Shown: positions 7,015 through 36,076 of the stretch, piece by piece
How the letters are laid out: every line of letters starts with the position of its first letter
Position numbering within the stretch: the stretch's first letter is position 1
NCBI GenBank assembly: GCA_964370965.1
Contig: CAYJLW010000013.1
Coordinates: 5,696 to 69,695, forward strand
From: an uncultured Acidimicrobiia bacterium
Lineage (GTDB): Bacteria > Actinomycetota > Acidimicrobiia > UBA2766
Direction of reading: 5' to 3'
Length of the DNA: 64,000 nt
Translations under genes and position numbers: made by a program
The notes under the pieces: model-generated
What the model was told of the DNA's origin: nothing
Seen by the model: the letters and a program-made list of their open reading frames with translations, nothing else
The model's database searches: none

Positions 7015-7440
7015 TTACCCCCTGACCACGTCCACGGACACGCAGCGGTCGAAGCGGACGGGCTGCCACTCCATGGGGGCGTACTGGAGGTGGTCGTAGC
7101 CGTCGACGAGGTGGAGCCACTTCACCATCCCGACCTCGACCTCGTTGGGGCCCTTGCCCCCCGGGGATCATGTAGTCCTCGTAGCCGTTGGAGACCGTCA
7201 GGGCGCCCGGACGCCACGTCGGGCTCGTGTGCAGGTTCACCCGAAAGTCGCCCACGTCGTTCCAGACCCCCGCGGTGTCGTCGGCGATGTCGAGAGCGGC
7301 GGCGTCGTCGGGGTGGATGAGCTGCGGACGGTGTCGGGGTGCCCACCGGTCGCTCCGGCCACCCGCTCCGGGCGGCACTCGCTGTCGAGGAGCCGCCGCA
7401 CCCGGGCCAGGAGCGGCTCCACGGTGACCGTCGTGCCGTC
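7015..7440 (-). pseudogene. C-terminal remnant of a molybdopterin bis-MGD oxidoreductase, paralogous to the 3' end of the 27563-30508 gene
   Basis: The minus-strand translation LIHPDDAAALDIADDTAGVWNDVGDFRVNLHTSPTWRPGALTVSNGYEDYMIPGG / KGPNEVEVGMVKWLHLVDGYDHLQYAPMEWQPVRFDRCVSVDVVRG* aligns with VVVHPEDAAREGIADHQPVRVSNEAGSFVVRAKLSPTQRPGGVTVYSGWDGHQFPGW...PSLVKHLGLAAGYGHLRYGPMEWQPVPCDRPVAVDIEAVVEG of the full-length gene. A +1 frameshift at the C6 run 7157-7162 separates the two segments. There is no N-terminal 800 aa, because the region upstream is the crtI-like promoter. Confidence 0.55.
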
Positions 7441-7523
7441 GGCGGGGGCGTCGTCGGTGACACGGGCGTCACCGGTTGTGGCGGGGCCTAATCGCTGGAT
7501 ATATTGGCTATCAATACCCATGA

Positions 7524-9155: not shown

Positions 9156-9156
9156 G

Positions 9157-9624: not shown

Positions 9625-9676
9625 GCCCGGCTGCCCCCTGCATTGGCAGTTCCCGTGCGAGTGAAAGGTCCTGGGG

Positions 9677-11272: not shown

Positions 11273-11300
11273 CGGCTCCCCAGAACGGGGACGGAGAGAG

Positions 11301-12822: not shown

Positions 12823-13379
12823 CTACACAACCGTGGATCGACCGCCTGGCGGCTCCCCGATGCCGAAGCGCGACTCCGTGACCGACACGTACTCCCGGCC
12901 CAGGTCCAGGCGGGCCGAGCCGAGCTCGGGACGGTTGGGCGTGTCGGGGAACATCTGGGGCTCCAACGACACCGAGCCGTGACGACGGAACGGCGCGCCA
13001 AGCCCGTTGCCTGTGTACACCTGATCGGCGCTCACGTGCATCCAGCGGCCGCTGGCGGGTGCGTCCAGCACCGCGGCCAGGCGGACGGTCCCCGCTTCTC
13101 CGGCGATCTCGTAGCAGTGGTCGAGTCCCGGCCCCGACGCCTCGCGTATCGCCCGATCGAAGCGCCCAGATGCGGGTTGCGTCCGTGGTCCTCGTACGCC
13201 GCGAGATCCGGCAGGCTGAGGTGGACGTCGGCGAGCTCACCCGACCTGTCCGGTGCTTCCAGCGAACGGATGGCCGCCCCCAGGGCGAGCAACCGCAACC
13301 GCAGCACGGGGCTCTCCAGACACACCTGCTCGACAGCGTGGCCGTCCTCGGTCACCCCCATCTGCTCCGCGAGCGCCAT
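12823..13379 (-). pseudogene. aldose 1-epimerase (mutarotase) N-terminal fragment, frameshifted
   Basis: The first frame gives ...LPDLAAYEDHGRNPHLGASIGRYARR (the mutarotase LGASIGRYANRI block). It then runs out of frame and resumes in another frame (RHGSVSLEPQMFPDTPN). Only about 180 codons remain before the cofD end. Confidence 0.45.
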
Positions 13380-13382
13380 GGG

Positions 13383-14195
13383 TCAGAGCCCCGGGCTGGA
13401 CTGGACCAAACCGCCGTCGACCGTCACCGTCGTGGCTGTCAGGTACGAGGCCCCCGGACCGGCCAGGAAGGCGACCACCTCCGCGATCTCCTCGGGCTGG
13501 GCCATGCGCCCCAGCGGGATCGCCGCATCCAGTACCGCCATCTTCCCCGGGTCCGCCATCGTCGCCGCGTTGATCGGGGTCGCCACCGCTCCCGGTCCCA
13601 CCCCGACCACGTTGATGCCGTGCGACGCCAGTTCCACCCCGGCAGTGCGGGTGAGCATCCGCATGGCGCCCTTCGAGAGGCAGTAGGGCGCGTTGCCGGG
13701 CATCGGCCAGTCCTCGTGCACGGAGGACATGTTGACGATCCGTCCACCGTCGCCCTGCGCGATCATCTGGCGTGCGGCGACCTGCGTTCCGAAGAAGGCC
13801 GATCGCAGGTTCACCGCCAGCACCTTGTCGTACTCCTCCTCGGTGGTGTCGAGCACCGACGTCCGGGTCTCCATCCCTGCGTTGTTGACCCAGACGTCCA
13901 GCCGGCCCCATTGCGCCGTGGCGGCGTCGACCAGTGCCTGCAGGTCGGACACCTTGGTCACGTCCGCGTCGACGCCGATGGCGTGCTCGCCGAGTGCGGC
14001 GATCCAGCGCTCCAGGGTCTCGGTGGCCTCCGGGTGACTGACGTAGTCGATGACCACCTCCGCTCCACGGGCTGCGAGAGCGAGGACGACAGCCTTGCCG
14101 ATGCCGCTGTTGCCGCCGGTGACCACGGCCACCTTGCCCGCCAAAGGCTGTTCGGGGGGGGTGTCAACGGCGTCTGACGGGGTCGTGGCGTTCAT
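13383..14195 (-). CDS. SDR-family oxidoreductase (3-oxoacyl-ACP reductase / glucose dehydrogenase-like)
   Basis: TGGNSGIG cofactor motif, NNAG, catalytic S...YCLSK. Start is ATG at 14195 behind GGAGG. The long upstream ORF extension is an artefact. Confidence 0.85.
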   Translation of the reverse strand: MNATTPSDAVDTPPEQPLAGKVAVVTGGNSGIGKAVVLALAARGAEVVIDYVSHPEATETLERWIAALGEHAIGVDADVTKVSDLQALVDAATAQWGRLDVWVNNAGMETRTSVLDTTEEEYDKVLAVNLRSAFFGTQVAARQMIAQGDGGRIVNMSSVHEDWPMPGNAPYCLSKGAMRMLTRTAGVELASHGINVVGVGPGAVATPINAATMADPGKMAVLDAAIPLGRMAQPEEIAEVVAFLAGPGASYLTATTVTVDGGLVQSSPGL

Positions 14196-14281
14196 GAGCT
14201 CCTCCGTTCGTGTCGTTCGCGGCCGCATCGATGCCGGCCGCTGGATGGACCGAAGACGACCCTGCCGGTGGCGCCCACCGG

Positions 14282-15760
14282 TCAGCCGGCGGATGCGCCG
14301 GCGGGCTGACCCGCTCCTCGAGTCCGGTCGTCGGGCAGGTGCCAACCGAGCGGCGCGCCCAGGTCGTCCACCGACGCCGGACCCCAAGTGCCGGACTCGT
14401 AGGTCTCCACCGGCCGCGGCGCGGCCAACAGCGGAGCCGCGACCTCCCACAGGCGCTCGATGCCCTCGGCGGTGTTGAACAGCGTGCGGTCCCCCAGCAT
14501 GGTGTCGTGCAGCAGACGCTCGTAGGCCTTGAGCTCGGCCCCCGGGTCGAAGCTCTGCCGGTACACGAAGTCCAGGTGCGCCCCGCCCAGCCTCATCGTC
14601 GCTCCGGGTTCCTTCGACCGGAAGTTCACGCGGATGCCGCCGGGCTCGGCGATCTCGAACACGAGCTCGTCCGGCGCCCGGGCGCCCGCGGCGGGGAACA
14701 TGTGCATTGGGGGCTCGCGCAGCGTCAGGGTGATGGCGCGCCGGCTCTCGGGCATGCGCTTGCCGGTGCGCAGGAGGACCGGGACGCCGGCCCAGCGGTC
14801 GTTGTCGATGTGGGCCTCCACCGCGACGAGGGTCTCGGTGTCCGAGTCGTCGGCCACGTCGGGCAGGTCCCGGTACCCGGCGTACTGCCCCCGGACCACG
14901 CGGGCTGGGTCCAAGGGCTGGATGTCGTCGAAGACCGCCTGTCGCCCTGCCCCGAGCGCCTCGGCCGTAAAGGACGCCGGCGACTCCATGGCGAGGAAAC
15001 CGAGCACTTGGAACAGGTGGGTGACCACCATGTCGCGGAAGGCGCCCGTCTCCTCGTAGAACTTGGCGCGATCCTCCACGCCCAGCGTCTCTGGGACGTC
15101 GATCTCCACCCGGGCGACGTGCTCCTTGCACCACACCGGCTCGAACAGCCGGTTGGCGAAGCGCACGGCCAGGATGTTCTGCACGTCCTCCTTGCCCAGG
15201 AAGTGGTCGATCCGGAAGATCTGCTCCTCGGCGAACACACTGCGGAGCACCGCGTTGAGCGCCTTGGCGGAATCGACGTCGGTGCCGAACGGCTTCTCCA
15301 GCACGACCCTCGCCCGCTCGCCGTTGAGCCCCGCCGTCCCCAAGCCGCCGACGATGCCGGGAACGGCCACAGGCGGGATCGACAGATACAGCAACGAGCG
15401 CGCGGAGGGGCCGAGGGCCGTTTCGCCGGCGCCCACGGCGGCCGCCAGCGCCGACATGTCGGTGGCGTCGCTCGGCACGTACGACAGGCGTGACAGGTAC
15501 GTGTCCCTTTCGGGGCCGTGGGTGGGCACGCGACCGAACTCGTCGACCATGTCCGCGGCGTGGCTCCGGAACTCGTCGTCGGTGCCGGACTGGGGCGACG
15601 TGCCGATCAGGCGGAAGTCCGCGGGCATCAGCCCGGCGGAATGCAGGTGGAAGAACCCCGGCAGCAACTTGCGGGCGGCCAGGTCCCCGGTGGCGCCGAA
15701 GAGCACGATCACGTGAGGATCGGCCACGGCGGAGTTCGTCGGGGCGTCGGTGGGATCCAC
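14282..15760 (-). CDS. zwf: glucose-6-phosphate 1-dehydrogenase
   Basis: N-terminal LFGATGDLA NADP motif and the G6PD active-site signature DHFLGKE. Confidence 0.9.
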   Translation of the reverse strand: MDPTDAPTNSAVADPHVIVLFGATGDLAARKLLPGFFHLHSAGLMPADFRLIGTSPQSGTDDEFRSHAADMVDEFGRVPTHGPERDTYLSRLSYVPSDATDMSALAAAVGAGETALGPSARSLLYLSIPPVAVPGIVGGLGTAGLNGERARVVLEKPFGTDVDSAKALNAVLRSVFAEEQIFRIDHFLGKEDVQNILAVRFANRLFEPVWCKEHVARVEIDVPETLGVEDRAKFYEETGAFRDMVVTHLFQVLGFLAMESPASFTAEALGAGRQAVFDDIQPLDPARVVRGQYAGYRDLPDVADDSDTETLVAVEAHIDNDRWAGVPVLLRTGKRMPESRRAITLTLREPPMHMFPAAGARAPDELVFEIAEPGGIRVNFRSKEPGATMRLGGAHLDFVYRQSFDPGAELKAYERLLHDTMLGDRTLFNTAEGIERLWEVAAPLLAAPRPVETYESGTWGPASVDDLGAPLGWHLPDDRTRGAGQPAGASAG

Positions 15761-15894
15761 GTTGTCAGCCTCCTGGGCGGCGGTCGGTCGGTCGGGACGG
15801 ACGGCTCGGATCCGGCGCCACTGGCTTGGACGGCGGGCGCGACGGCGGCGGCGCTGCGGCCCCTTCGGCGGGAGCGCTCTTGTCGTCCTGGCGC

Positions 15895-16584
15895 TCAGGC
15901 GTCACGGCGTGCCTCCGCGGCAGGTCCTGCCGCGGCGGCGTCGGCCAGGACCAGCGATGCCGCCGCCTCCACCCGACCGGCGGGGATGGAGCGGTCACCG
16001 GCCAGGAGCGAGGCCAGCGGCGTGCGCTTCTCCTCGCCGGTGACGAGCCAGAGGAGTTGGCCGGCGCGGGCGAGGGCCGGAAAGGTGAGAGTCATCCGGT
16101 GCCGGCCCTGGTACGTGGCGCCGGTGGGGGCGACGAGCCGGTCGGCCACCTCCAGGACGGGGTCGCCGGGGACCAGGGACGCGGTGTGCCCGTCGGGGCC
16201 GAGGCCGAGGTGGACGAGGTCGAAGCGGTCGGGAAGCTCCGTACCGTAGCGGGATGAGGCCGCTGCCAGGTCTTCCTCCTCGACGGGCATCGGATGGACG
16301 TGGGCCGGCGCGTCGCCGAGCGCGGAGCGGAGGCGCGCCAGGTTGCGGTCCGGGTCGTCCGCCGGGGCCACGCGCTCGTCGACCTGGTAGACGTCGACCC
16401 GGTCCCACGCCACGTCGAGAGCGGCCAGGCGGGCGAACATGACCCACGGCGTCCGGCCGCCGCTCACGGCGAACGTGAACCGGCCGCGCTCGGCCACGCC
16501 GACCCGGACCCATTCGGCGACCAGGGCAGCAGCCGCGGTGGCGACGGCCTCGGCGTCGGACCGGACGACGAGCTCGTGGTCCAC
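15895..16584 (-). CDS. pgl: 6-phosphogluconolactonase
   Basis: LGLGPDGHTASL signature. GTG start at 16584 forms a GTGA overlap with the gnd stop. Confidence 0.8.
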   Translation of the reverse strand: MDHELVVRSDAEAVATAAAALVAEWVRVGVAERGRFTFAVSGGRTPWVMFARLAALDVAWDRVDVYQVDERVAPADDPDRNLARLRSALGDAPAHVHPMPVEEEDLAAASSRYGTELPDRFDLVHLGLGPDGHTASLVPGDPVLEVADRLVAPTGATYQGRHRMTLTFPALARAGQLLWLVTGEEKRTPLASLLAGDRSIPAGRVEAAASLVLADAAAAGPAAEARRDA

Positions 16585-16586
16585 GC

Positions 16587-17618
16587 TCAGGCCTGCTTCT
16601 CGGCGTGGCCGCCGAACTCGCCGCGCATGGCGGAGAGGACCTTGGCGGTGAACAGGCCGAGATCGCGGGACTCGAACCTCTCGTTGAGGGCGGCGCTGAT
16701 GACGGGAGCGGGGACGCCCTCCTCGATGCCGGCGACGACCGTCCAACGACCCTCACCGGAGTCCGACACGCGACCGGCGTACTCGTCGAGCTCGGGGGAG
16801 CGGGCCAGCGCATCGGCGGTGAGGTCCACGAGCCACGAGCCGACGACTGAGCCACGCCGCCACACCTCGGCGACCTCGGCGACGTCGATCTCGTACCGGT
16901 AGTACTGCGGGTCCCGCAACGGCGTGGTCTCGGCGTCCACCTCCTGCCGGCGGAGGCCGGCGTCGGCGCCCTTGATGATGGAGAGGCCTTCGGCGATGGC
17001 GGCCATCATCCCGTACTCGATCCCGTTGTGGACCATCTTCACGAAATGCCCGGCGCCGTTCGGCCCGCAGTGCAGGTATCCCTTCTGGGCCGTGCCGTCG
17101 GTGCGCGTGCGGCCCGGCGTCGGGTCCACGTCGCCCTCACCGGGAGCGATGGTCGTCCAGATCGGGTCCAGGTGCGCCACAGGGGCGTCCTCCCCGCCGA
17201 TCATCAGGCAGTAGCCGCGATCGAGGCCCCAGACGCCCCCGCTGGTCCCGCAGTCTACGTAGTGGATCCCCAGTTCCTTGAGCTGGGCGGCCCGGGCGAT
17301 GTCGTCGCGGTAGTACGAGTTGCCTCCGTCGACGACCACGTCGCCGGCGTCGAGCAACTCCGCGAGCTGGTCGACGGTGCCCTGCACGAACCCGGCCGGG
17401 ACCATGATCCACACCGCCCGGGGGGACTCCAGCTTCGACACGAAGTCGGCCAACGACTCGGCGCCGGTGGCGCCCGCGTCGGCCAGCGCCGCGACCGTCG
17501 GGGCGCTCACGTCGTAGACCACGCAACGGTGGCCGTCGGCCGTCAACCGGCGGACGATGCTCGCGCCCATGCGGCCCAGGCCGATCATGCCCAACTGCAT
17601 CGGGTTCTTGGTCGTCAT
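16587..17618 (-). CDS. gnd: 6-phosphogluconate dehydrogenase (decarboxylating), short form
   Basis: LGMIGLGRMGASIV Rossmann motif; CGTSGGVWG; GHFVKMVHNGIEYGMM signature; about 343 aa. Confidence 0.85.
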   Translation of the reverse strand: MTTKNPMQLGMIGLGRMGASIVRRLTADGHRCVVYDVSAPTVAALADAGATGAESLADFVSKLESPRAVWIMVPAGFVQGTVDQLAELLDAGDVVVDGGNSYYRDDIARAAQLKELGIHYVDCGTSGGVWGLDRGYCLMIGGEDAPVAHLDPIWTTIAPGEGDVDPTPGRTRTDGTAQKGYLHCGPNGAGHFVKMVHNGIEYGMMAAIAEGLSIIKGADAGLRRQEVDAETTPLRDPQYYRYEIDVAEVAEVWRRGSVVGSWLVDLTADALARSPELDEYAGRVSDSGEGRWTVVAGIEEGVPAPVISAALNERFESRDLGLFTAKVLSAMRGEFGGHAEKQA

Positions 17619-17630
17619 CGTGGTGCCTCC

Positions 17631-19269
17631 TCAGGCGTGCTTCAGGTGCCGGTAGGTGCGGATGAGCGCATTGGTGGACGAGTCGAAGTTCAGGTCGGGA
17701 TCGTCGGCGGCGGTGAGCTTGGGGATGATGGCCAGCGCCAGCACCTTGCCCAGCTCCACGCCCCACTGGTCGAAGGAGTCGACGTCCCAGATCGTGCCCT
17801 GGGTGAACACGCTGTGCTCGTACAGGGCGACGAGCGTACCCAGCCGGTACGGCGTGAGGACGTCGGCGAGGATGACGTTGGTGGGCCGGTTCCCCTCCAT
17901 CACGCGGTGGGGGACGACGTCCTCCGCGGTGCCTTCGGCCCGGACCTCGTCCTCGGTCTTGCCGAAGGCCAGCGCCTGGGCCTGGGCGAACACGTTCGAC
18001 GACAGGATGTCGTGGTGGTCGCCCAGCGGGTTGAGAGTCTTGGCGAACCCGATCAGGTCGCACGGGATCGTCGTCGTGCCCTGGTGGATCAGTTGGTAGA
18101 AGCTGTGCTGGCCGTTGGTGCCCGGCTCACCCCAGTACACGGCGCCGGTGTCGGCGGTGACATGCCCACCGGCCAGCGTGACGTGTTTGCCGTTCGACTC
18201 CATCGTGAGCTGCTGCAGGTAGGCCGGAAAGCGCTTGAGGTACTGCTCGTAGGGCAGCACCGCCACGGTCTGGGTGCCCAAGAAGTTGCGGTACCAGACC
18301 GCGAGCAGACCCATCAGCACCGGGAGGTTGGATTCGAAAGGAGCCGTGCGGAAGTGCTCGTCCATGTCGTGGAACCCGCTGAGCATCTCCCGGAACCGGT
18401 CAGGGCCCACCGCCAGCATCGTCGAGAGCCCGATCGCCGAGTCCATCGAATACCGGCCGCCGACCCAGTCCCAGAACCCGAACATGTTCGCCGTGTCGAT
18501 CCCGAACTCCCGCACCCGCCCGGCGTCGGTCGACACCGCCACGAAGTGCTTCGCCACCGCAGCGTCGTCGCCCAGCGCGGCGAGACACCACTCGCGTGCG
18601 GAGCGGGCGTTGGTCATCGTCTCGAGCGTCCCGAACGTCTTCGAGGCGATGACGAACAGGGTCTCGGCCGGATCCAGGTCACGGGTGGCCTCGACGAAGT
18701 CGGTCGAGTCCACGTTCGACACGAACCGGAACGTCATGTCCCGCTCCGCGTAGAACCGCAGCGCCTCGTACGCCATGACCGGCCCCAGGTCCGACCCGCC
18801 GATGCCGACGTTGACGACGTTGCGGATGCGCTTGGCGGTGTGTCCCACCCACTCGCCGGAGCGCACCCGCTCGGAGAAGGCCGCCATGGCGTCGAGCACG
18901 TCGTTGACCTCGGCCACCACGTCCACGCCGTCCACCACCAGCGACTCGCCCCTGGGCATCCGCAACGCCACGTGCAGCACCGAACGGTCCTCGCTCACGT
19001 TGATCCGGTCCCCCCGGAACATCGCATCGATGTGCTCGCGCAGGCCCGACTCCCGGGCCAGCTGCACCAGCAGCCCCATCGTCCGGTCCGTCACCCTGTT
19101 CTTCGAGTAGTCCAGGTACAGGCCGCATGCCTCGGCCGTGAGACGATCACCGCGCCCCGGATCCTCCGCGAACAGGTCCCGCAGGTGCCGGGACTCGATG
19201 TCGTCGCGGTGCGCGGCCAGTGCCGCCCAGGCCGGATGCTCGCTCAGGTGCACGCGGTAGCTCATCGTC
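17631..19269 (-). CDS. pgi: glucose-6-phosphate isomerase
   Basis: SIS-domain PGI blocks ([36 protein letters not shown]). ATG at 19269 behind GGAGG. Confidence 0.9.
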
Positions 19270-20362: not shown

Positions 20363-20408
20363 GTCCGGCTCCTGTTCGTCTCGCTCTCGTGCCGCGGACT
20401 CGTCCGGC

Positions 20409-22481: not shown

Positions 22482-22489
22482 CTCTCTCC

Positions 22490-25840: not shown

Positions 25841-26704
25841 TCAGGCTGGGGACGGCGGCCCCTGCAAAAGAGCCGCCGGCATCGCCGGGGCCCGGCCCTC
25901 GGCGGCGGCCTGCATGCGCTCCACGGCAGCGGTGGCGAGCTCGGAATGGGGGAAGACCCAGAAGCGACCGGAGCGCACGGCGTCGAGGACCTGGGTCGCG
26001 ACGTCTCCGGGTTCGAGGCCGGCGGCGACGACCTGGCTGAGGGTTTCCCGCATCGCCTGGGTGGACCGCCCGTAGGTGGGAGCGGGGCCGAGACGGTCGG
26101 GCCAGTTGCGCTCGGCGTCGGGGAGCCCGGTGTTCACCCAGCTCGGGCACACCACCGAGACACGCACCGGTGACCCCATCAGGGCAAGGTCGTGGTGGAG
26201 GGACTCCGAGAGTCCCACGACGGCGTGCTTGCTCGCCACGTAGGGGCCGAACACCGGCGCGGCCACGACACCGAGGACCGAGGCCGTGTTCACGACGTGG
26301 CCCTCGCCCTGGGCGACGAGACGGGGCACGAAGGCGCTGATCCCGTGGACGACGCCGTAGAGGTTCACGCCCAGCACCCACTCCCAGACGGAAGCGGGGA
26401 CCTTCCAGCTCAGGCCGCCGCCGGCGACACCGGCGTTGTTGCAGAGCACGTGTACGGCGCCGTGGCGCTCGAAGGCGGCGTCCGCCAGCGCCTCCACGGC
26501 GGCGAGCGAGGCGACGTCGGTGGGGACGGCGAGGACGTCGGTCCCGCGGCGGCGGAGCTTTTCGGCGGCCACCGCCAGTTGGGCCTCTTCCACGTCGGCG
26601 AGCACGACCGCCATGCCCTCGGCGCCGAAGCGTTCCGCCAGGGCGTAGCCGATGCCGCTCGCCCCGCCGGTGACCACGGCGACCTTTCCGCTGAGCTCGT
26701 CCAT
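25841..26704 (-). CDS. SDR-family oxidoreductase
   Basis: VTGGASGIG, NNAG and S...YVASK motifs. ATG at 26704 behind GAGGAG. Confidence 0.85.
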   Translation of the reverse strand: MDELSGKVAVVTGGASGIGYALAERFGAEGMAVVLADVEEAQLAVAAEKLRRRGTDVLAVPTDVASLAAVEALADAAFERHGAVHVLCNNAGVAGGGLSWKVPASVWEWVLGVNLYGVVHGISAFVPRLVAQGEGHVVNTASVLGVVAAPVFGPYVASKHAVVGLSESLHHDLALMGSPVRVSVVCPSWVNTGLPDAERNWPDRLGPAPTYGRSTQAMRETLSQVVAAGLEPGDVATQVLDAVRSGRFWVFPHSELATAAVERMQAAAEGRAPAMPAALLQGPPSPA

Positions 26705-26800: not shown

Positions 26801-27523
26801 GTGACCGACATCTTCGCCATGCCACAGCCAGGGGAGATGATGTGGATCGGCGCCCGCATCCTCGTCGTCGACGTCGAGGTGCACGCCGAGGCGGCCCGCC
26901 GCCTCCTGCCCCCCACCCTGGAGCTGTCCGAGCCGGCGGCAGCCACCCTCTTCGTCGCCGAGTACCCCGAGACTGCCTTCGGCTCCGTCTACAACGAGGC
27001 CGCCGTCATCCTCCACGGCACCGACGGCAAGGGCGAGATCGGCCACTGCCCCTGGATGGTCGTGGACGAGGACACCGCCCTCATCCTCGGCCGGGAGACG
27101 CTCGGTTTCCCGAAGAAGCTCGCCGACATCAGCCTCCAGCTCGACGGCGACCGCGCCGTGGGCACCGTCGTGCGCCGCGGCGAGGAGGTCCTGCGCCTCG
27201 AGGCTCACCTGGGTGGCGTCGAGACCGACCCCGAGCCCATCCTGGCCCGCCGGGGCGTGAACCTCTTCGGCTCGATCATCGGGGGCATGCGCCTCATCGA
27301 GCTCCCTCCTCCCAACCAGGAGATACACGAATCCCGCAGCGCGGAGGCCAAGGTCGTCCTGGGGCGCACCGACCGCGACCCCCTGGGCGACCTCCGGGCC
27401 GGGACGGTCCGCGGGGCCCGCTACGTCCACCTGGACTTCGGCTCCGGCACCGACATGCCCAAGCTCCTGGGCAAGGTCGACTTCGCCTGGAGCCTCCCCC
27501 GGTTCCTCGCCAACGCCCTCTGA
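26801..27523 (+). CDS. acetoacetate decarboxylase (ADC) superfamily protein
   Basis: About 240 aa of a beta-rich protein. Blocks typical of ADC-like family proteins (AAVILHGTDGKGEIGHCPWMVVDED, RETLGFPKK). Called by pattern memory. Confidence 0.65.
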   Translation: MTDIFAMPQPGEMMWIGARILVVDVEVHAEAARRLLPPTLELSEPAAATLFVAEYPETAFGSVYNEAAVILHGTDGKGEIGHCPWMVVDEDTALILGRETLGFPKKLADISLQLDGDRAVGTVVRRGEEVLRLEAHLGGVETDPEPILARRGVNLFGSIIGGMRLIELPPPNQEIHESRSAEAKVVLGRTDRDPLGDLRAGTVRGARYVHLDFGSGTDMPKLLGKVDFAWSLPRFLANAL

Positions 27524-27562: not shown

Positions 27563-30508
27563 GTGAGCGCACCAGACCCCTCCCGCCCCGGCGAAGCCCG
27601 CCACCGCTCCCGCTGGACATGGGACAGCGTGGCGTGGGGCAGCCACTGCGTGGACTGCTACCCGGGCAACTGCAGCTACCGCCTGTACGTGCGCGACGGC
27701 AAGGTCGTGCGCGAGGAGGTCGCCGGCGCGGGCGAGCCCTCCTCGGGCTCCCTCCCTGACGGCCTCCCCCTGGGATGCAACAAGGGGGCGGCCTGGAGCG
27801 CCCAGATCGAGGGCCCCGACCGCGTACGCTGGCCGATGCGCCGGGTGGGAGAGCGGGGCTCGGGCGCGTGGGAACGCCTGAGCTGGGACGACGCCCTCGA
27901 CGCCGTCGCCGACGTCCTCGTCGACACGATCGAGGCCGACGGACCCGGCGCCATCCTCCGGGAGGGGACACCCCAGGTCGGCGTCGGTCTCGCCCCGGAT
28001 CGTTTCGTACACCTCCTCGGCGGCACCGTCACTGACCTGAACGGGGCGATCAACGACTTCGCCAACGGCCTGCACATCACGTTCGGGAAGTCCAACCCGG
28101 TCTACTCGCCCCGCAGCGTCTTCGAAGCCGACGTCCTCCTCCTCTGGCACATCAACCCCGCCTACACGCTGATTCCCGTCTACCACTGGATGACCGAGGC
28201 CCGCTACCGGGGCGCCGAGGTCGTCCTCTTCTCCCCCGACGTGAACCCCACCCACAGCCACGTCGACTACGCGGTGCCCGTACGCTGGGGCGCCGACGCC
28301 GCGGTCGTCCTCGCCATGTGCCAGGTGGTCGTCGCCGAAGGCCTCGTCGACGAAGGCTTCGTCGCGACCCAGACCGACCTCTCGCTGCTCGTGCGCACCG
28401 ACACGGAGCGGTTCCTGCGCGAGAGCGACGTCGTCGCCGGCGGCCACGAGGAGCAGTTCTTCCACCTCGACCCCGGGCGGGGCGTCGTCCCCGCCGACCG
28501 CGCCAACCTCCTGTGCGACTACGAACCCGCTCTCCGGGGCCGGACGACGGTCACCCTCGCCGACGGCGGCGAGGTCGTCGTGGCGCCCCTGTTCGAGCGG
28601 GTGGCGTCCCTCCTCGCCGACTACACGCCCGAGGCCGCCGCCGAGGTGGCCGGCACGCACCCGGAGACGATCCGCACCGTCGCCCGCAAGGTGGCCGCCG
28701 GACGCACGTATGCCGCCATCGGAGGGGGCGCCGAGAAGCTCTACCACGGCGACCTCTTCCAGCGCTCCGCCCACCTCCTCCTCGGCCTCACCGGGAACTG
28801 GGGTCGCCCCGGTGCCGGGACGACGTCGTGGTCGGTGCCTCATGGCGACGGCTCGCTCCTCACGTCCGCGAAACGGACCCCCGGCCCCGAGGGCGCCGAA
28901 GTCGTCCTCGCCCTCCTCGAGAGCCTCGCCGCCGCCGTGAAGGCGTCGGACCCCACGATGTCCGACGAGCTCGCCGCCTTCGCCCTGCACCGGGGACCCC
29001 TCGCCGACAAGGCCATGGTGCCCCCGTTCTTCTTCTGGTATTGGCACGCCGGGTTCGCGGAGCGGCTCAACAACACCGCCTGGGGCGACCCCACGATGAA
29101 ACGCACCTATGACGAGTACGTCCAGGAGGCCCTCGACGAGGGCTGGTGGGCCGGCTTCGACCGCCCCGGCCCCGACGACACCCCCCGGGTCCTGATCGAG
29201 TGTGGAGGCAACATCCTGCGCCGCACCCGGGGCGGTGGTCGGCTCCTCCTCGAACACCTCTGGCCGAAGCTCGAGCTGATCGTCACCATCGACTTCCGCA
29301 TGTCCCTCACCGCCCTGCACTCCGACGTCGTCCTGCCCGCCGCCCAGCCCTACGAGAAGGTGGGCACGCACATGCCCTCCATGGAACTCACCCTCTCGGA
29401 CAGCGCCGTGGAACCCGTCGACGACGCGCTCCCCGAGTGGGAGATCTTCGCCGGTCTCTGCCGGGCCGTCGAGCGCCGCGCCGCCGCGCGGGGCCTCGAG
29501 CACTTCCGCCACTCGGGCGGCGCCCGGCGCCGCTACGACAAGCTCTGGGCGGCCTTCACCCTTAAAGGCGTCCTACGCACGACCGAGCACGTCGTGGACG
29601 AGACCATCCGGGACGCCGCCTACGCCGGGATCCTTCCCGAGGGCACGACGCTGGAGTCCCTGCGGGAGTCCGGGCGCATGAACTTCACCGGCTGGGGCGT
29701 GACCGCCTTCGGCCAGAGCCAGGCAGCGGACTGGCAGGACGACGTCCGGACCGTCGTCCCCTGGAGCAACCACGTCGAGAAGGGCGACCCCTACCCCACC
29801 CTCACCCGCCGGGCGCAGTTCCTCGTCGAGCACCCCTGGTTCGTGGAAGCGGGCGAGGACCTCCCCTGCCACAAGGAGCCCCCGCAGATGGGCGGCCCCG
29901 GCCGCTACTGGATGACCACCGGGCACAACCGCTGGTCGATCCACGCCATGAACATGGCGAACCCGTGGCTCATCCAGACCCACCGGGGCGAGCCCCACGT
30001 CGTCGTCCACCCCGAGGACGCCGCCCGCGAAGGCATCGCCGACCACCAGCCGGTGCGGGTCTCCAACGAGGCGGGCTCCTTCGTCGTGCGGGCGAAGCTC
30101 TCCCCCACCCAGCGCCCCGGCGGCGTCACCGTCTACTCGGGCTGGGACGGCCACCAGTTCCCGGGCTGGAACCCGCCCAGCGACGTCGAGCCCAGCCTCG
30201 TCAAGCACCTCGGACTCGCCGCCGGCTACGGCCACCTCCGCTACGGACCCATGGAGTGGCAGCCCGTCCCCTGCGACCGCCCCGTCGCCGTCGACATCGA
30301 GGCCGTCGTGGAGGGGGTGGGGGGGGGGGTGGCGCCCCCCCCCCCCCCCCGGGCCGGGGGGCCCGCGGCCCCCCCCCCCCCCCCCCCCCGCTCGCCCGGG
30401 GGCGCCGGCGGCACCACACCACCACACGACCGGGATGGCGGTGGCGCCGGAGACGAAGGTCCTTGCTCACGAGCGGCCAACCGTGTTCCACCGCCGTGGC
30501 ATAGATGA
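27563..30508 (+). CDS. molybdopterin bis-MGD oxidoreductase (DMSO-reductase superfamily) with N-terminal Cys-cluster motif; 3' end unresolved
   Basis: The N-terminal HCVDCYPGNCSYRLYVRDGKV...LGCNKG is an FeS-type Cys motif with atypical spacing. Size (about 920 aa) and the C-terminal molybdopterin-dinucleotide-binding domain fit the family. There is no twin-arginine signal. The reading frame continues through G/C homopolymer tracts at 30313-30400 as poly-Gly/Pro. The truncated paralog at 7015-7440 suggests the true stop lies near 30315. Confidence 0.75.
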   Translation: MSAPDPSRPGEARHRSRWTWDSVAWGSHCVDCYPGNCSYRLYVRDGKVVREEVAGAGEPSSGSLPDGLPLGCNKGAAWSAQIEGPDRVRWPMRRVGERGSGAWERLSWDDALDAVADVLVDTIEADGPGAILREGTPQVGVGLAPDRFVHLLGGTVTDLNGAINDFANGLHITFGKSNPVYSPRSVFEADVLLLWHINPAYTLIPVYHWMTEARYRGAEVVLFSPDVNPTHSHVDYAVPVRWGADAAVVLAMCQVVVAEGLVDEGFVATQTDLSLLVRTDTERFLRESDVVAGGHEEQFFHLDPGRGVVPADRANLLCDYEPALRGRTTVTLADGGEVVVAPLFERVASLLADYTPEAAAEVAGTHPETIRTVARKVAAGRTYAAIGGGAEKLYHGDLFQRSAHLLLGLTGNWGRPGAGTTSWSVPHGDGSLLTSAKRTPGPEGAEVVLALLESLAAAVKASDPTMSDELAAFALHRGPLADKAMVPPFFFWYWHAGFAERLNNTAWGDPTMKRTYDEYVQEALDEGWWAGFDRPGPDDTPRVLIECGGNILRRTRGGGRLLLEHLWPKLELIVTIDFRMSLTALHSDVVLPAAQPYEKVGTHMPSMELTLSDSAVEPVDDALPEWEIFAGLCRAVERRAAARGLEHFRHSGGARRRYDKLWAAFTLKGVLRTTEHVVDETIRDAAYAGILPEGTTLESLRESGRMNFTGWGVTAFGQSQAADWQDDVRTVVPWSNHVEKGDPYPTLTRRAQFLVEHPWFVEAGEDLPCHKEPPQMGGPGRYWMTTGHNRWSIHAMNMANPWLIQTHRGEPHVVVHPEDAAREGIADHQPVRVSNEAGSFVVRAKLSPTQRPGGVTVYSGWDGHQFPGWNPPSDVEPSLVKHLGLAAGYGHLRYGPMEWQPVPCDRPVAVDIEAVVEGVGGGVAPPPPPRAGGPAAPPPPPPRSPGGAGGTTPPHDRDGGGAGDEGPCSRAANRVPPPWHR
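30313..30400. repeat. G/C homopolymer tract cluster (G11, C16, C24 runs) at convergent gene ends
   Basis: Directly visible: gggggtgggggggggggtggcg, then C16, then gggccgggggg, then C about 24. Both flanking genes lack proper stop codons here. Confidence 0.8.
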
Positions 30509-30803
30509 GCCGGTCCGCCGGGTCGCCGGGGAACGAAGCCGGCAGGGCCGCGGCGATGTCCGCCACGGCCGGCGAGACCGCCACAGTGCGGATCTGCACC
30601 GCCAGGGACTCCAGCCAGGAGCGCACCGGAACCGACACGCGGATCCTGTCGTGGCGCGCCAACCACGCCAACTCGAACCACGTGATCCCACTCACAGCCA
30701 GCTCGTCGGCGCCGGCGACCGTCTCGGTGGCGGTCCGACTCAACCGCTCCGGCTCAGCAGACCACCACTGCACCACGTGCGTGTCGAGCAGGACGGTCGT
30801 CAC
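30440..30803 (-). CDS. vapC: PIN-domain toxin VapC (C-terminus runs into the homopolymer tract; end uncertain)
   Basis: GTG at 30803 forms a GTGA overlap with the antitoxin stop. VTTVLLDTHVVQWW gives the PIN motif with its N-terminal Asp. ...IYATAVEHGWPLVSKDLRLRR is the usual C-terminal block. Confidence 0.6.
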
Positions 30804-31027
30804 TGGAGTTCCCAATCGGCGCCGGTCGAGAAGAGGTCGTCCTCCTCCGCTGCGCTCACGGCCACTCCGGAGAGCCGTCCTCTGAGACCCGCGGGCCCTC
30901 CTGCCGGGACGAGGCGGGCGACCGGGCGTCCCCTCTTGGTGATGAGCACCTCCTCGCCGGCGGCCACCTCGTCGAGCAGGGCGAGGATGCGGGCCTTCAC
31001 CTCGGTGGCGGTCATCTGACGGGTCAT
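30800..31027 (-). CDS. Phd/YefM-family antitoxin
   Basis: MTATEVKARILALLDEVAAGEEVLITKRGRPVARLVP is the Phd/YefM signature. Confidence 0.75.
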   Translation of the reverse strand: MTRQMTATEVKARILALLDEVAAGEEVLITKRGRPVARLVPAGGPAGLRGRLSGVAVSAAEEDDLFSTGADWELQ

Positions 31028-31078
31028 GTGGTCATGTTAGTGGCCGCCACACATTCCAAGCCGCCGGACCGGCTGCGC

Positions 31079-31510
31079 CTACTCGTCGAGGGGGTGGGCC
31101 CAGCGCAGACCGGGGAACCGGGCGAAGCCCCGGTCGGCCGACACCCAGGTGCTGCCCTGCTCGACCGCGATCGCCGCCAGGTAGGCGTCCGGGACGACGT
31201 TGCCCTTCGCGCCGACCCGCCGGCAGAGGTCCGAGAAGATGCCCCAGTGCCGGTCGCCCGGCGCCACGGTCGTCGTGGCCGGGGAGGCACGGAGCGCATC
31301 CACGAAGTCCAGGGCGACACCGAGGGGGGTGGGCTCACGGAAGACGCGAGGATGGGTCACGACCCGAAGGAAGCCACTCGCCACGACGTCACTGAGCCCC
31401 AGCGGTTCGGGAGAGCGACGAGCCGCATCGAGCCACCCGCGGTAGGCCTCGTGGCCGAGCGACTCCGGCCGGTGGGCGAACACGAGGACGTTGACGTCAA
31501 CGCAACGCAT
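31079..31510 (-). CDS. vapC: PIN-domain toxin VapC
   Basis: MRCVDVNVLV (Asp5), VPDAYLAAIAV and WVSADRGF are PIN catalytic acidic positions. 143 aa. Confidence 0.8.
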   Translation of the reverse strand: MRCVDVNVLVFAHRPESLGHEAYRGWLDAARRSPEPLGLSDVVASGFLRVVTHPRVFREPTPLGVALDFVDALRASPATTTVAPGDRHWGIFSDLCRRVGAKGNVVPDAYLAAIAVEQGSTWVSADRGFARFPGLRWAHPLDE

Positions 31511-31754
31511 CGCCAGGCGTGCTCTCGTCCATCACGTCTGCGAGGGCGGCGTTGCTCGTGAGGTCGACGCCGGCCAGGACGCCGCTCCCCCCGAAGACGG
31601 GCAGGGGCGCCACCCCTTGTTCCGGTGCCCGCCGGGGCCGCAGGGCCTCCCGGACGGCGTCTTCGATGACCTCGCCGACGGTGCGACCGGTCTGGGCGGC
31701 GCGGGCCTTCACCCGCCGGTAGAGCTGGTCCTCGATCCGGATCGTGGTCCGCAT
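31497..31754 (-). CDS. vapB: ribbon-helix-helix (CopG/VapB-type) antitoxin
   Basis: MRTTIRIEDQLYRRVKARAAQTGRTVGEVIEDAVREAL is the RHH fold signature. Overlaps the vapC start by 14 nt. Confidence 0.7.
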   Translation of the reverse strand: MRTTIRIEDQLYRRVKARAAQTGRTVGEVIEDAVREALRPRRAPEQGVAPLPVFGGSGVLAGVDLTSNAALADVMDESTPGDALR

Positions 31755-31772
31755 GGTGCATCTTAGCACCAT
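31753..31772. promoter_or_regulatory. inverted repeat ATGGTGC-N6-GCACCAT overlapping the vapB start codon (likely autoregulatory operator)
   Basis: Perfect 7-bp arms, seen directly in the sequence. Confidence 0.45.
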
Positions 31773-33847: not shown

Positions 33848-33851
33848 GACC

Positions 33852-35567
33852 GTGACCCGTCAGACCTACGAAGTGCAGGTTCCTCCCGAAGAGCGCATCC
33901 TCGACGAGTTCCCGGAGCGCTCCGAGTTCGACGTAGTCGTCGTGGGTGGGGGCCCGAACGGCCTCATGACCGCCGCCTACCTCGCCCGTGCCGGACTGCG
34001 CACCGTCGTCGTGGAGCGCCGCCACGAGATCGGCGGCGGCCTCGCCACGGAAGAGGTCCTCTTCCCCGGCTACTACACCAACGTCCACGCCGTCTATCAC
34101 ATGATGACGGACTTCATGCCCCTGTTCCGGGACTTCGACTTCGCCAAGCACGGCCTCACGTTCGTGAAGCCCAACGCCCAGACGGCGGCGGTCTTCCCCG
34201 ACGGCAAGAGCCTGCTCCTCTGCAACCAGCTCGAGGACACCAAGGACTCCATCGCGAAGTTCTCCCGCCAGGACGCCATCAACTTCGGCAAGGTCATGCG
34301 CACCTGGCGCAAGGTCGTCGACGAAGTCGTGGGGCCCGCCACCTACGTGCCGCCCGTGGCCCCGATAGACATGATCGAGGCGTTCGAGCGCACCGAAACC
34401 GGCCGTGAGACGCTGCGCCTCACGGAGATGTCCCCCGTCGAGATCATCGACGAGATCTTCACCGACGACCGCGTGAAGATGACGATGCTGTACGCCGCCT
34501 GCATGTGGGGCCTGGACCCGACCGACACCGGCCTCGGGTTCATGGTGCCCCTGCTCATCGACCGCACGATGAACAAGGCGATCGCCTATGGCGGCTCCCA
34601 CAAGCTCGCCGGAGCCCTCTCCCGCGAGATCCACAAGGCCGGCGGCCTCGTCGTCGACAACGCCGAGGTCACCCGGATCATCGTCGAGGGCGGCGCCGCC
34701 GTCGGCGTGGAGACGTTCGACGGGCGCGAGATCCGGGCGAAGGCCGTGGTCTCCAGCCTCGACCCGCAGACCAACTTCCTCCGCCTCCTCGAGCGCGACC
34801 AGGTGCCCGCCGACCTCGTCACCCGCGCCGAGGGTTGGGAGTGGGACAAGTGGTCCTTCTTCACGGTCTCCCTCGCCATGACCGAGGCGCCCAAGTACGT
34901 CACCGACGACCCCTGGGTGAACAAGGCGTTCATGACGATCCTGGGCTTCGACTCCACCGAGGCTCTCCTGGCGCACTGGGACGGCGTCCTGAACAACCGC
35001 CTCGGCCCCGGTCTCGGCGGTCACGCCACCACCGAGACCCTCTACGACCCCACCCTGTCGCGGGTGCAGAGCGGGTCGCCGCACCCGTGGGCCGAGGAAC
35101 CGCCGGCAGCCAAGGGGCCCCGCCACCACGTGGCGTTCCTGCAGATGCACGCCCCCTACGACCTCGAGGGGGGCTGGAAGCAGCGTCACGACGCCCTCGT
35201 CGAGGAGACCATCGAGACCTGGGGGCGCTACGCCCCGAACGTCAAGGCCGAGAACATCCTCATCCGCTCCGGCGAGTCGCCCCTCGACATCGAGCGGCGC
35301 ATGCCGAACATGGTGCGGGGTTCCATCAAGCACGGCGACTACAACTCGCTGCAGATGGGCGTGTTCCGTCCCGACGACTCCTGCGTGGGCGGCCGCAGCC
35401 CGATCCAGGGCCTCTACCTCTGCGGCGCCTCCAACTACCCGGGCGGCCTCGTCATCGGGGGGTCCGGCTACATCGCCGCCAACACCGTGGCCGAGGACCT
35501 CGGCGTCGAGAAGTGGTGGACCCCGCCCCGGCACGTGGCCCGCTTCGAGGAGACGTACATGTCATGA
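33852..35567 (+). CDS. CrtI/phytoene-desaturase-family FAD-dependent oxidoreductase (paralog B2)
   Basis: FDVVVVGGGPNGL...ERRHEIGGG; C-terminal CGASNYPGGLVIGGSGYIAAN. GTG start 4 nt after the B1 stop. Confidence 0.85.
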   Translation: MTRQTYEVQVPPEERILDEFPERSEFDVVVVGGGPNGLMTAAYLARAGLRTVVVERRHEIGGGLATEEVLFPGYYTNVHAVYHMMTDFMPLFRDFDFAKHGLTFVKPNAQTAAVFPDGKSLLLCNQLEDTKDSIAKFSRQDAINFGKVMRTWRKVVDEVVGPATYVPPVAPIDMIEAFERTETGRETLRLTEMSPVEIIDEIFTDDRVKMTMLYAACMWGLDPTDTGLGFMVPLLIDRTMNKAIAYGGSHKLAGALSREIHKAGGLVVDNAEVTRIIVEGGAAVGVETFDGREIRAKAVVSSLDPQTNFLRLLERDQVPADLVTRAEGWEWDKWSFFTVSLAMTEAPKYVTDDPWVNKAFMTILGFDSTEALLAHWDGVLNNRLGPGLGGHATTETLYDPTLSRVQSGSPHPWAEEPPAAKGPRHHVAFLQMHAPYDLEGGWKQRHDALVEETIETWGRYAPNVKAENILIRSGESPLDIERRMPNMVRGSIKHGDYNSLQMGVFRPDDSCVGGRSPIQGLYLCGASNYPGGLVIGGSGYIAANTVAEDLGVEKWWTPPRHVARFEETYMS

Positions 35568-36076
35568 GGCTCAAGTCCCGCGGCCTGGGCCGCAAAGAGC
35601 TCGTGATGGACTTCCGCGAATACGACGTCGTCGCCGACGGCGACGAGATCGTGATCATGGGCACCATCCACGAGCCCGTCCACTGGGATTTCTCGATCCG
35701 GGTCTGCGAGGACGACCTCGCCGGGATCATCAACGTGGCCCTGAAGAAGTCGACGCGGCGTTTCGCCCTGCGGGCGATCTTCCGGCGCGACAAGCGCCAC
35801 CACTGGAACACCGACCGCGCCCGGCGAGTCGTCCTCGCCCGCGAGCACAGCCTGGACCTCGCCCGCAAGGAGGCGAAGGCCGCGCTCCCCGAGGGCGTCG
35901 AGGCCGACGCTGCCGAGGCCGCGATCGAGAACGACAAGGGCGTCCGCAAAGCGAGGAAGAGAGCCGAGAAGGCCCAGCGGAAGTACTCTGCCCAGGAGGA
36001 GACCGCCGCGACGGTCGTCGCCCCGGCCCCCGGTGACGCCGAGAGCCTCTCGGACGTCGGTTCGGGAGCCGCGTGA
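35566..36076 (+). CDS. hypothetical protein (compact N-terminal domain plus Lys/Arg/Ala/Glu-rich tail)
   Basis: ATG forms an ATGA overlap with the B2 stop. Codon usage is consistent with coding. No family recognised. Confidence 0.45.

Follow-up and report, generated by a model that had tools for sequence, protein, structure and literature searches.

To our knowledge, only a few denitrifying Proteobacteria have so far been shown to hydroxylate and desaturate unactivated isoprenoid chains at C-H bonds in a water-dependent, O2-independent manner. The closest described case is that of Sterolibacterium denitrificans, where Δ24-steroid desaturase (Δ24-SD) is composed of α and β subunits, which are encoded by two adjacent genes, share 26% identity and each bind FMN covalently via the histidine of the motif G-F-L/R-x-N/S-T/L-H-A (Zhan et al. 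2024, PMC11061730). The enzyme forms a Δ22,24 conjugated diene, and the molybdenum-dependent steroid C26 dehydrogenase S26DH2 then hydroxylates the allylic C26 methyl group with water. The next step requires a separate alcohol dehydrogenase, and CoA activation and β-oxidation come after it (PMC11061730). The nearest characterized relative of Δ24-SD is the limonene dehydrogenase CtmAB, and uncharacterized Δ24-SD homologs in Acidimicrobiales have already been remarked upon (PMC11061730). Here, we analyzed a stretch of 64,000 nucleotides from an uncultured Acidimicrobiia bacterium (GenBank assembly GCA_964370965.1, contig CAYJLW010000013.1, positions 5,696 to 69,695 of the forward strand), in the following termed the window. 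It carries genes for four flavoproteins (A1, A2, B1 and B2), two lipid-binding proteins with SCP2 fold (SCP2a and SCP2b), a conserved 170-amino acid protein (p170) and the catalytic α subunit of a molybdoenzyme (Mo α), along with the remains of a second such α gene. A preliminary description of this DNA saw in it two paralogous loci, each pairing a molybdoenzyme with CrtI-type desaturases or isomerases.

We consider it fairly probable, as parts of one and the same explanation, that the flavoprotein module and an α subunit lacking a twin-arginine translocation (Tat) signal would together desaturate or hydroxylate a chain of the isoprenoid or sterol type, the candidate substrate class, without O2, and that the region derives from a neighborhood conserved in uncultured Acidimicrobiia, of which it is a copy that has been rearranged and has in part decayed. 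Since the high GC content of the window (71%) gives rise to many spurious open reading frames (ORFs), genes were called by third-position GC and then examined by Pfam and NCBIfam scans and by direct reading. All genes listed in the preliminary description were recovered in this way, with boundaries agreeing almost to the base. For comparison, related loci were gathered as a set of 79 loci centered on Mo α homologs (Mo-centered) and a flavoprotein-centered set, for which metagenome contigs were scanned with A2 orthologs, yielding 59 loci; conserved neighbors were compared in 143 loci. One of the related loci, L080, is a metagenome contig of a 96%-identical relative and has the same layout around Mo α, B1 and B2 as the window.

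Sequence comparison assigns the four flavoproteins to the family of CtmAB and Δ24-SD and sets them apart from carotenoid enzymes. In BLASTP comparisons with the Δ24-SD α and β reference sequences (Table S2 of PMC11061730) all of them aligned over their full length, B2 with β (37% identity, 348 bits, E=7e-118), A2 with both α and β (30-32% identity, 208 and 210 bits), A1 with α (31% identity, 187 bits) and B1 with α as its top characterized match (182 bits; β: 115 bits). Identity to Δ24-SD α amounts to 28-31% for A2, A1 and B1. Because Δ24-SD resembles CtmA and CtmB (34% and 38% identity, PMC11061730), the window proteins are also linked to CtmAB, if indirectly, via Δ24-SD. The flavin attachment motif reads GFRHNMHA in A1 (residues 63-70), GFLHNIHA in A2 (52-59), GFRIDPHA in B1 (51-58) and GYYTNVHA in B2 (73-80). 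Its His-Ala pair is invariant in all four proteins, and inner positions differ in B1 and B2. The motif is kept within each of the four orthologous groups described below and is identical in every B1 ortholog examined. The retained histidine predicts a covalently bound flavin in all four proteins, for which an O2-independent allylic dehydrogenation or hydroxylation is the putative reaction. The speculation about lipid or isoprenoid oxidation in the preliminary description lay in the right area.

The naming of the proteins as CrtI-type desaturases or isomerases holds at the level of the superfamily. It could be taken further to mean that all four are carotenoid-type, CrtI-, CrtO- or CrtD-like desaturases, ketolases or isomerases acting on a pigment or another biosynthetic isoprenoid. 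The CrtO β-carotene ketolase model is indeed the best NCBIfam match for all four, crtI_fam and the Pfam Amino_oxidase model are also matched, and CrtI (PDB 4dgk) is the nearest solved structure by sequence. Note, however, that the CrtO scores (157-241 bits) stay four to six times under the cut-off of 1000, that the crtI_fam scores (50-94 bits) do not reach the cut-off of 238 and that the CrtD models are likewise far from theirs; in Pfam, the proteins match generic FAD and amine oxidase models alone. CrtI has a glycine in place of the flavin-binding histidine and is matched with 38 bits, as opposed to up to 348 bits for Δ24-SD. Furthermore, crtB, crtE and crtY were absent from the scanned genes of the window and from the conserved neighbors in the 143 loci, which are catabolic. 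A role in carotenoid metabolism therefore appears very improbable.

With mutual identities of 27-36% the four flavoproteins are old paralogs, just as the preliminary description held. B1 and B2, whose genes are adjacent, are 28% identical, and A1 and A2, separated by SCP2a alone, are 34% identical. In a neighbor-joining tree A1, A2, B1 and B2 fall into four clean orthologous groups; Δ24-SD β is the sister of the B2 group, and the largest divergence is seen in B1. A1/B1 and A2/B2, for which a phylogeny had been suggested as a check, are hence not orthologous pairs. A2 is the most conserved member, and about 45 loci contain an A2 ortholog with 75-82% identity. In at least ten other loci (L093, L097-L099, L101, L103, L104, L112, L115 and L027/L081, the last from the genome collection) the genes are contiguous in the order B1-B2-p170-A1-SCP2a-A2-SCP2b, and the count rises to 11 with L120, a locus cut at its 5' end that shows the same order from B2 onward. 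As the four flavoprotein genes of the window represent four orthologous groups and are contiguous elsewhere, the window contains one ancestral module that was broken between p170 and A1, and not two paralogous duplicates. About 20 kb now separates the two halves (from the end of SCP2b at 11828 to the start of B1 at 32147), a stretch that holds the CofD-like gene, a second short-chain dehydrogenase gene, a pentose-phosphate operon and others. The four flavoproteins most likely form two αβ-type pairs or one larger hetero-oligomer. L090 (7524-10777) and L091 carry close homologs of Δ24-SD α and β (57% and 63% identity) directly downstream of A1-SCP2a-A2 and a B1-like gene; a single contig can therefore hold at least three flavoprotein pairs from the family.

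The two small proteins encoded around A2 share a fold. For SCP2a, the Pfam model SCP2 (PF02036) is matched by 20 out of 20 orthologs (best E=1.6e-6), and a profile aligns collinearly and over the full length with the Thermus SCP2 protein 2cx7, with a weak E of 0.23. SCP2b is recognized by PF02036 in 3 of 15 orthologs; its profile found no match in the PDB, and the profiles of SCP2a and SCP2b were not significantly related in hhalign. Here, structure prediction succeeded where sequence searches failed and settled the fold: the AlphaFold2 (AF2) model (pLDDT 84) retrieved almost exclusively SCP2 folds among its top approximately 40 Foldseek matches in the PDB (probability 1.0, target-normalized TM-scores of 0.5-0.69), UbiJ-SCP2 among them. 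A C-terminal, Arg-flanked hydrophobic helix (residues 139-172) is apparent from direct reading. The earlier labeling of this protein as an SCP2 protein with a transmembrane segment is thus confirmed. The SCP2b family is confined to Acidimicrobiia. The family of p170 comprises 313 unannotated proteins with a conserved N-terminal part of approximately 85 residues, and in contiguous modules p170 always sits between B2 and A1. It has no Pfam match, and its AF2 model (pLDDT 82) has no fold match in the PDB. An R-R-E-L stretch led us to consider p170 as an SdhE-like flavinylation factor; the predicted β-sheet-plus-helix fold does not support this. The CofD-like protein, whose gene is translationally coupled to SCP2b, scores 203 bits with TIGR01819, the model for the 2-phospho-L-lactate transferase CofD of F420 biosynthesis, under the cut-off of 257, and may be a paralog with another acceptor. 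Its position after SCP2b recurs among the related loci only in L088 (4324-5094, 54% identity), and its membership in the system is uncertain.

The molybdoenzyme is, judging from its sequence, a Tat-less catalytic α subunit of the ethylbenzene dehydrogenase (EBDH) and steroid C25/C26 dehydrogenase type. The match with EbdA (PDB 2ivf_A) covers the full length (E=8.6e-197, 660 bits). With 688 bits it remains below the cut-off of 2000 for the EbdA equivalog, and it appears to represent a sister clade of the EBDH-type enzymes rather than a curated member. The ligands of the iron-sulfur cluster FS0 (H28, C32, C37 and C72), D165, corresponding to the molybdenum ligand Asp223 of EbdA, and K392 (EbdA Lys450) show no variation among 22 members of the family. 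By analogy with EBDH, a water-dependent hydroxylation of alkyl carbons is the putative reaction. Only 37 codons without an RR motif fit between the upstream stop codon and the FS0 motif, leaving no Tat leader, and none of 40 N-termini examined in the family contains a Tat motif. The missing signal predicts a cytoplasmic location. This is unusual in that the characterized relatives are all periplasmic (PMC10100899), which was also the outcome of a literature search for a described cytoplasmic EBDH-like clade. Counting proteins with E<=1e-20, the family comprises 728 members, mostly of about 915-940 residues, from metagenome-assembled genomes of Acidimicrobiia, Chloroflexota and Myxococcota with several paralogs per genome. 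The window protein had been described as an intact enzyme of 920 residues. It is intact, and its ORF runs to 981 residues: the conserved part ends near residue 915, and the last approximately 65 residues (30300-30508) are a Pro/Gly-rich read-through. In L080 (10001-13456) the ORF continues even to 1151 residues, running antisense across the region of the Phd antitoxin. It seems that the original stop codon has disappeared.

Some homologs are annotated at their source as "Perchlorate reductase subunit alpha" or as "Dimethylsulfide dehydrogenase subunit alpha", and structures of the PcrA type (4ydd, 5e7o) are matched with 405 bits. Mo α might accordingly be thought to be an oxyanion reductase (for perchlorate, chlorate, selenate or nitrate) or a dimethylsulfide dehydrogenase without any relation to lipid oxidation. 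The full-length EbdA match is much the stronger one, however, NarG trails with 135 bits, and the NasC, NarG and DmsA models are far under their cut-offs. Assimilatory nitrate reductase in particular, raised in the preliminary description as a possible identity, is missed by a wide margin, with 73 bits for NasC (cut-off 1100) and 41 bits for NasA (cut-off 1000). In addition, all reductases of this kind other than NarG are periplasmic, whereas Mo α has no Tat signal. The closest relatives of Mo α adjoin genes for acyl-CoA dehydrogenases, acyl-CoA ligases, thiolase-like and acetoacetate decarboxylase-like (ADC-like) proteins and Zn-dependent alcohol dehydrogenases (Zn-ADH), instead of respiratory or chlorite dismutase genes. 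This neighborhood is a side-chain β-oxidation context. All this renders a function in oxyanion or dimethylsulfide metabolism highly unlikely.

The molybdoenzyme remnant noted earlier next to A1 is a real, decayed pseudogene. By tblastn it dissolves into three fragments on the reverse strand, matching residues ~347-387 (7443-7321), ~816-890 (7321-7148) and, after one frameshift, 885-932 up to the stop codon (7164-7021) of a family member. It has thus lost its N-terminal approximately 346 residues and approximately 430 internal ones. The fragments are 73-90% identical to P0092, their closest relative, which is encoded elsewhere, with 90% over the last 46-48 residues, and 57% identical to the intact α of the window. 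Because they are so much closer to P0092, the remnant is the pseudogene of a second, different α paralog. P0092 itself is uninformative with respect to context, its 5.9-kb contig holding Macro-domain and CoA-transferase neighbors and no flavoprotein genes. No further piece of the remnant was found anywhere in the window, including the region upstream of B1, and for this reason the rearrangement that split the module could not be reconstructed.

Linkage of flavoproteins and molybdoenzyme extends beyond the window. Among the 79 Mo-centered loci, module genes occur at a distance of up to 10 kb from a family α in L010, L013, L016 and L027. In flavoprotein-centered loci, α lies directly downstream of SCP2b (L114, L120) or 5 kb downstream of it (L088). 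In L013 the α gene is divergent from B1 at a distance of 0.6 kb, and in L027 it is divergent with a radical-SAM gene alone in between. The module-linked α subunits belong to at least four subclades of the α tree, and orientations vary among the loci. In the window, the A half abuts the dead α, and 1.6 kb upstream of the B half is the live, different α paralog. Because orientations and α subclades differ and the window halves are flanked by two paralogs, we interpret this as repeated juxtaposition rather than shared ancestry. "Mo plus β" matches in L117, L119 and L129 were considered as instances of the same association and not counted, as the enzyme is of a different kind: a Tat-dependent, NarG-sized class II dimethyl sulfoxide (DMSO) reductase α of 1224 residues, encoded with β, γ and δ beside divergent A1-SCP2a and A2 (L117, 3708-7382). 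Also note that a radical-SAM/SPASM protein with SEC-C motif is encoded directly upstream of the family α, or upstream of B1, in several loci (L081, 6879-8156; L082, 4426-5703; L115, 2355-3548; also L014, L066 and L075). From its position, it may be a maturase or a partner that modifies a peptide or cofactor.

A number of findings weigh against joint action of module and molybdoenzyme. Linkage is facultative, with about 10 of the 13 flavoprotein-centered loci that extend at least 5 kb downstream of SCP2b being devoid of α. Moreover, α paralogs are dense, five of them residing on one 403-kb Microthrixaceae contig, and a second α is present within 6 kb in 26 of the 79 Mo-centered loci. Given this density, mere proximity carries little weight as evidence. 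Mo α and B1 of the window are kept apart by toxin-antitoxin genes and a gap of 375 bp, which means that the two are not part of one operon, and the α next to the A half is dead. The enzyme itself scores below the curated cut-off of TIGR03479 (766 versus 985 bits) and has Gln138 in the position of EbdA His192. Finally, tblastn with representatives from related loci revealed no genes for β, γ or δ subunits in the 64-kb window, nor is a ferredoxin or electron-transfer flavoprotein gene present there. Several of these points would also fit an explanation in which module and molybdoenzyme work in different pathways and are neighbors only as common cargo of lipid or hydrocarbon catabolic islands: paralog density, the many flavoprotein-centered flanks without α, the separation of the intact α from B1 and the loss of the other. 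On the other hand, the two are repeatedly found as close together as genes of an operon, with α genes from various subclades and in various orientations (L114, L120, L013, L027), and in S. denitrificans the two enzyme families act consecutively. We regard separate pathways as less likely than the joint action of flavoproteins and molybdoenzyme, though by no means negligible.

The FS0 cluster serves to pass electrons to the β subunit. Since its ligands are kept in Mo α, since no β or γ genes are present in the window and since the eight α paralogs of S. denitrificans share the subunits β3/4 and γ3/4 (PMC6016249), Mo α is probably an orphan α that would borrow β and γ subunits encoded outside the window. 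In the 79 Mo-centered loci, an EbdB-like iron-sulfur β occurs in 31, an EB_dh-type (heme b) γ in 20 and a NarJ-type δ chaperone in 14, and complete α-γ-β-δ operons adjoin orphan α genes in L006, L021 and L023. The single-subunit enzyme proposed in the preliminary description is less likely in view of the retained FS0 ligands and of the EbdB-, EbdC- and chaperone-like genes beside paralogous α genes in related loci. In one α subclade, a conserved protein of about 519 residues without Pfam match follows and slightly overlaps the α gene, usually after α-γ-β-δ operons (L088, 11956-13533; L114, 5672-7231; ten Mo-centered loci, e.g. L041, 17783-19342). This protein may be an additional subunit or may act in maturation.

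In the sequence of events that we propose, SCP2b and SCP2a would extract a hydrophobic isoprenoid- or sterol-type chain and hold it. Their folds are established as described above, and the carrier role is put forward because such proteins suit a water-insoluble substrate. The flavoproteins would then dehydrogenate or hydroxylate an allylic position without O2, as Δ24-SD and CtmAB do. The molybdoenzyme, working with β/γ electron-transfer subunits encoded outside the window, would place a water-derived hydroxyl group on the resulting allylic carbon or on a tertiary carbon in the manner of the steroid C26 and C25 dehydrogenases (S26DH, S25DH) and EBDH. A neighboring short-chain dehydrogenase (SDR) or Zn-ADH could oxidize the alcohol towards the acid for CoA activation and β-oxidation, a step suggested by the conserved neighbors. 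The window and its relatives match the S. denitrificans sequence in the flavoproteins, the EBDH-type α, the SDR and the Zn-ADH, and the SCP2 carriers come in addition. More tentatively, and with distinctly less confidence than in the proposal as a whole, one may imagine that four covalent-flavin subunits, two SCP2 proteins and p170 constitute one membrane-tethered hetero-oligomer with an interchangeable cytoplasmic α, acting on sterol, hopanoid or isoprenoid side chains by O2-independent desaturation and hydroxylation in the largely aerobic Acidimicrobiia.

Table 1 Features of the window (positions as in the 64,000-nucleotide stretch; aa, amino acids)
Feature	Position	Strand	Evidence
BNR/Asp-box repeat protein, 341 aa	2001..3026	-	Pfam BNR
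Zn-dependent alcohol dehydrogenase	3034..4095	-	Pfam ADH_N/ADH_zinc_N
Low-GC insert	4394..6816	-	GC 62-65% vs ~71% in the window
376-aa partner ORF, overlaps methyltransferase gene	4394-5524	-	without family match
C5 cytosine DNA methyltransferase, in low-GC insert	5521-6816	-	Pfam DNA_methylase E=3.6e-51
Decayed EBDH-type molybdoenzyme α pseudogene, head-to-head with A1	7018..7443	-	tblastn; Pfam Molydop_binding
A1 flavoprotein subunit, CtmAB/Δ24-SD family, 543 aa	7524..9155	+	BLASTP to Δ24-SD, His motif
SCP2a, soluble SCP2-family lipid-binding protein, 155 aa	9157..9624	+	Pfam SCP2 in orthologs
A2 flavoprotein subunit, CtmAB/Δ24-SD family, 531 aa	9677..11272	+	BLASTP to Δ24-SD, His motif
SCP2b, SCP2 fold plus C-terminal membrane anchor, 175 aa	11301..11828	+	AF2 and Foldseek
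CofD-like phosphotransferase, 313 aa, start overlaps SCP2b stop codon	11825..12766	+	Pfam CofD E=2.6e-37
Short-chain dehydrogenase (SDR), divergent from ADC-Mo α pair	25841..26704	-	Pfam adh_short E=3.8e-50
Acetoacetate decarboxylase-family protein (ADC-like), 40 nt upstream of Mo α	26801..27523	+	Pfam ADC E=4.6e-35
Intact Tat-less Mo α, 981-aa ORF, EBDH/steroid C25/C26 dehydrogenase type by sequence, Mo-bisPGD	27563..30508	+	EbdA match
Mobile-type insert between Mo α and B1	30800..31772	-	Pfam PhdYeFM_antitox, PIN, RHH_1
Orphan Phd/YefM antitoxin	30800-31027	-	Pfam PhdYeFM_antitox
VapC PIN toxin	31079-31510	-	Pfam PIN
RHH antitoxin, paired with PIN toxin (pair 31079-31772)	31497-31772	-	Pfam RHH_1
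B1, α-like CtmAB/Δ24-SD-family flavoprotein subunit, 566 aa	32147..33847	+	BLASTP, His motif
B2, β-like CtmAB/Δ24-SD-family flavoprotein subunit, 571 aa	33852..35567	+	BLASTP, tree, His motif
p170, conserved 170-aa protein, start overlaps B2 stop codon	35564..36076	+	conserved family

Some of the genes around the module belong to the same conserved neighborhood, and this includes those for the BNR-repeat protein and the Zn-ADH at the far left of the window (Table 1). Orthologs of the former (56-57% identity) are found in 8 flavoprotein-centered loci, directly after SCP2b for example in L093. Those of the latter (60-65% identity) stand beside a family α in 10 Mo-centered loci and occur in 4 flavoprotein-centered loci as well. 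SDR homologs of 30-53% identity are present in 11 related loci, ADC-like genes lie near α in about 8-10 loci, and the order ADC-α recurs in L004 at 55% identity. The ADC-like protein retains a G-F-P-K-K stretch, which may correspond to the Schiff-base lysine pair of acetoacetate decarboxylase. Housekeeping genes of the window, i.e., the pentose-phosphate operon and others, served as an internal control and recur in 0-1 related loci, compared with 14 for Zn-ADH, 11 for SDR and 8 for ADC.

Other features stand apart from the conserved neighborhood. The low-GC insert, whose genes have no homolog in any related locus, is presumed to be a restriction-modification island outside the pathway. Of the two toxin-antitoxin modules recorded previously between Mo α and B1, one is a complete RHH/PIN pair and the other is reduced to an orphan Phd/YefM antitoxin; the insert has the same layout in L080 and is absent from the other related loci. 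Between the CofD-like gene and the second SDR gene (~13383-14140), two short overlapping ORFs in different frames with coding-like third-position GC (12823-13379, reverse strand) look like a frameshifted gene fragment. The pentose-phosphate cluster between the module halves (13383-22529, reverse strand) consists of zwf, pgl, a 6-phosphogluconate dehydrogenase-like gene, pgi, tal and tkt, and a gene for a HAD phosphatase comes next. A 601-residue ORF (23822-25627, reverse strand) combines a cytochrome b561-like membrane region with a sulfite oxidase-type molybdopterin domain in an MsrPQ-like fusion, and the same stretch is called as two genes in L080. Downstream of p170, a run on the reverse strand (36272-41677) encodes an HTH_20 regulator, a 409-residue protein, an FeS_assembly_P-type protein (seen in L080), a 460-residue protein with a weak COX1-like stretch and a 118-residue protein, with an Old Yellow Enzyme flavoreductase after it; none of the genes in the run recurs in related loci. 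Further to the right are genes for a wax-ester synthase (WS/DGAT, 42777-44180) and for the hydrogenase maturation protein HypF (44152-46506).

Should the proposal prove true, abundant uncultured Acidimicrobiia from soil, sludge and water would possess a cytoplasmic version of the same two-enzyme logic, extended to four flavoprotein subunits with their own SCP2 carriers and coupled to a very large family of Tat-less molybdenum hydroxylase paralogs, more organisms would have to be credited with the turnover of sterols and terpenoids, and candidate biocatalysts for regioselective hydroxylation would become available. S25DH is already in use for making 25-hydroxyvitamin D3. If the hetero-oligomer existed as sketched above, the Tat-less α family would constitute a large unexplored reservoir of water-dependent C-H hydroxylases. 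The annotations "phytoene desaturase family" and "perchlorate reductase", which these proteins currently carry, are corrected by our findings.

Among the known systems, limonene dehydrogenase of Castellaniella defragrans (ctmABCDEFG; Petasch 2014, PMC4109377) resembles the flavoproteins of the window in being a heteromeric COG1233 flavoprotein pair with approximately 27% mutual identity and in having the same histidine motif (PMC11061730); small hypothetical genes, ctmC and ctmD, follow ctmB much as p170 follows B2. It also attacks the allylic methyl group of an isoprenoid independently of O2, as far as the citation of Puentes-Cala 2018 in PMC11061730 conveys. In contrast, ctmE and ctmF of the ctm cluster encode a ferredoxin of the 2Fe-2S type and a ferredoxin reductase, a pair not found in the window, and the cluster has neither SCP2 nor molybdoenzyme genes. 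EbdABC (PDB 2ivf) and the steroid C25 dehydrogenases S25DH1-4 share with the window the full-length alignment of α, the FS0 His/Cys ligands, the Asp ligand of molybdenum and Lys450, as well as the wealth of α paralogs per genome, some of them orphan, like the eight of S. denitrificans. They differ from it in the Tat leader, in accompanying β, γ and δ subunits and in His192, which is Gln in Mo α. The Ubi metabolon with UbiJ-SCP2 is alike in its working only, since an SCP2 fold holds a membrane isoprenoid lipid for soluble flavoenzymes. The two systems have no sequence relationship, and the flavoenzymes of the Ubi metabolon serve biosynthesis as monooxygenases that depend on O2.

The closest parallel remains Δ24-SD, an (αβ)4 enzyme, together with S26DH2 (PMC11061730). 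Both there and in the window, diverged flavoprotein subunits with a flavin-binding histidine are encoded in adjacent pairs. The partner is, or in the window would be, a class II DMSO reductase-family hydroxylase of the EBDH type, and a separate alcohol dehydrogenase is, or would be, required downstream. However, where S. denitrificans has two flavoprotein paralogs the window has four, joined by two proteins of SCP2 fold and by p170, S26DH2 is periplasmic whereas Mo α lacks a Tat signal and adjacent β, γ and chaperone genes, and the hosts are a denitrifying betaproteobacterium in the one case and an actinobacterium in the other. The pairing of a flavoprotein with a subsequent molybdenum hydroxylase is thus already known, having been shown biochemically in S. 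denitrificans (Zhan et al. 2024). The pathway is for this reason not categorically new, and the view in the preliminary description that such a pairing had not been described gives way to this published two-step sequence (PMC11061730). What had not been described before is the Tat-less α clade with its predicted cytoplasmic location, the module of four flavoproteins plus SCP2 proteins and its recurrent linkage to different α paralogs in Acidimicrobiia.

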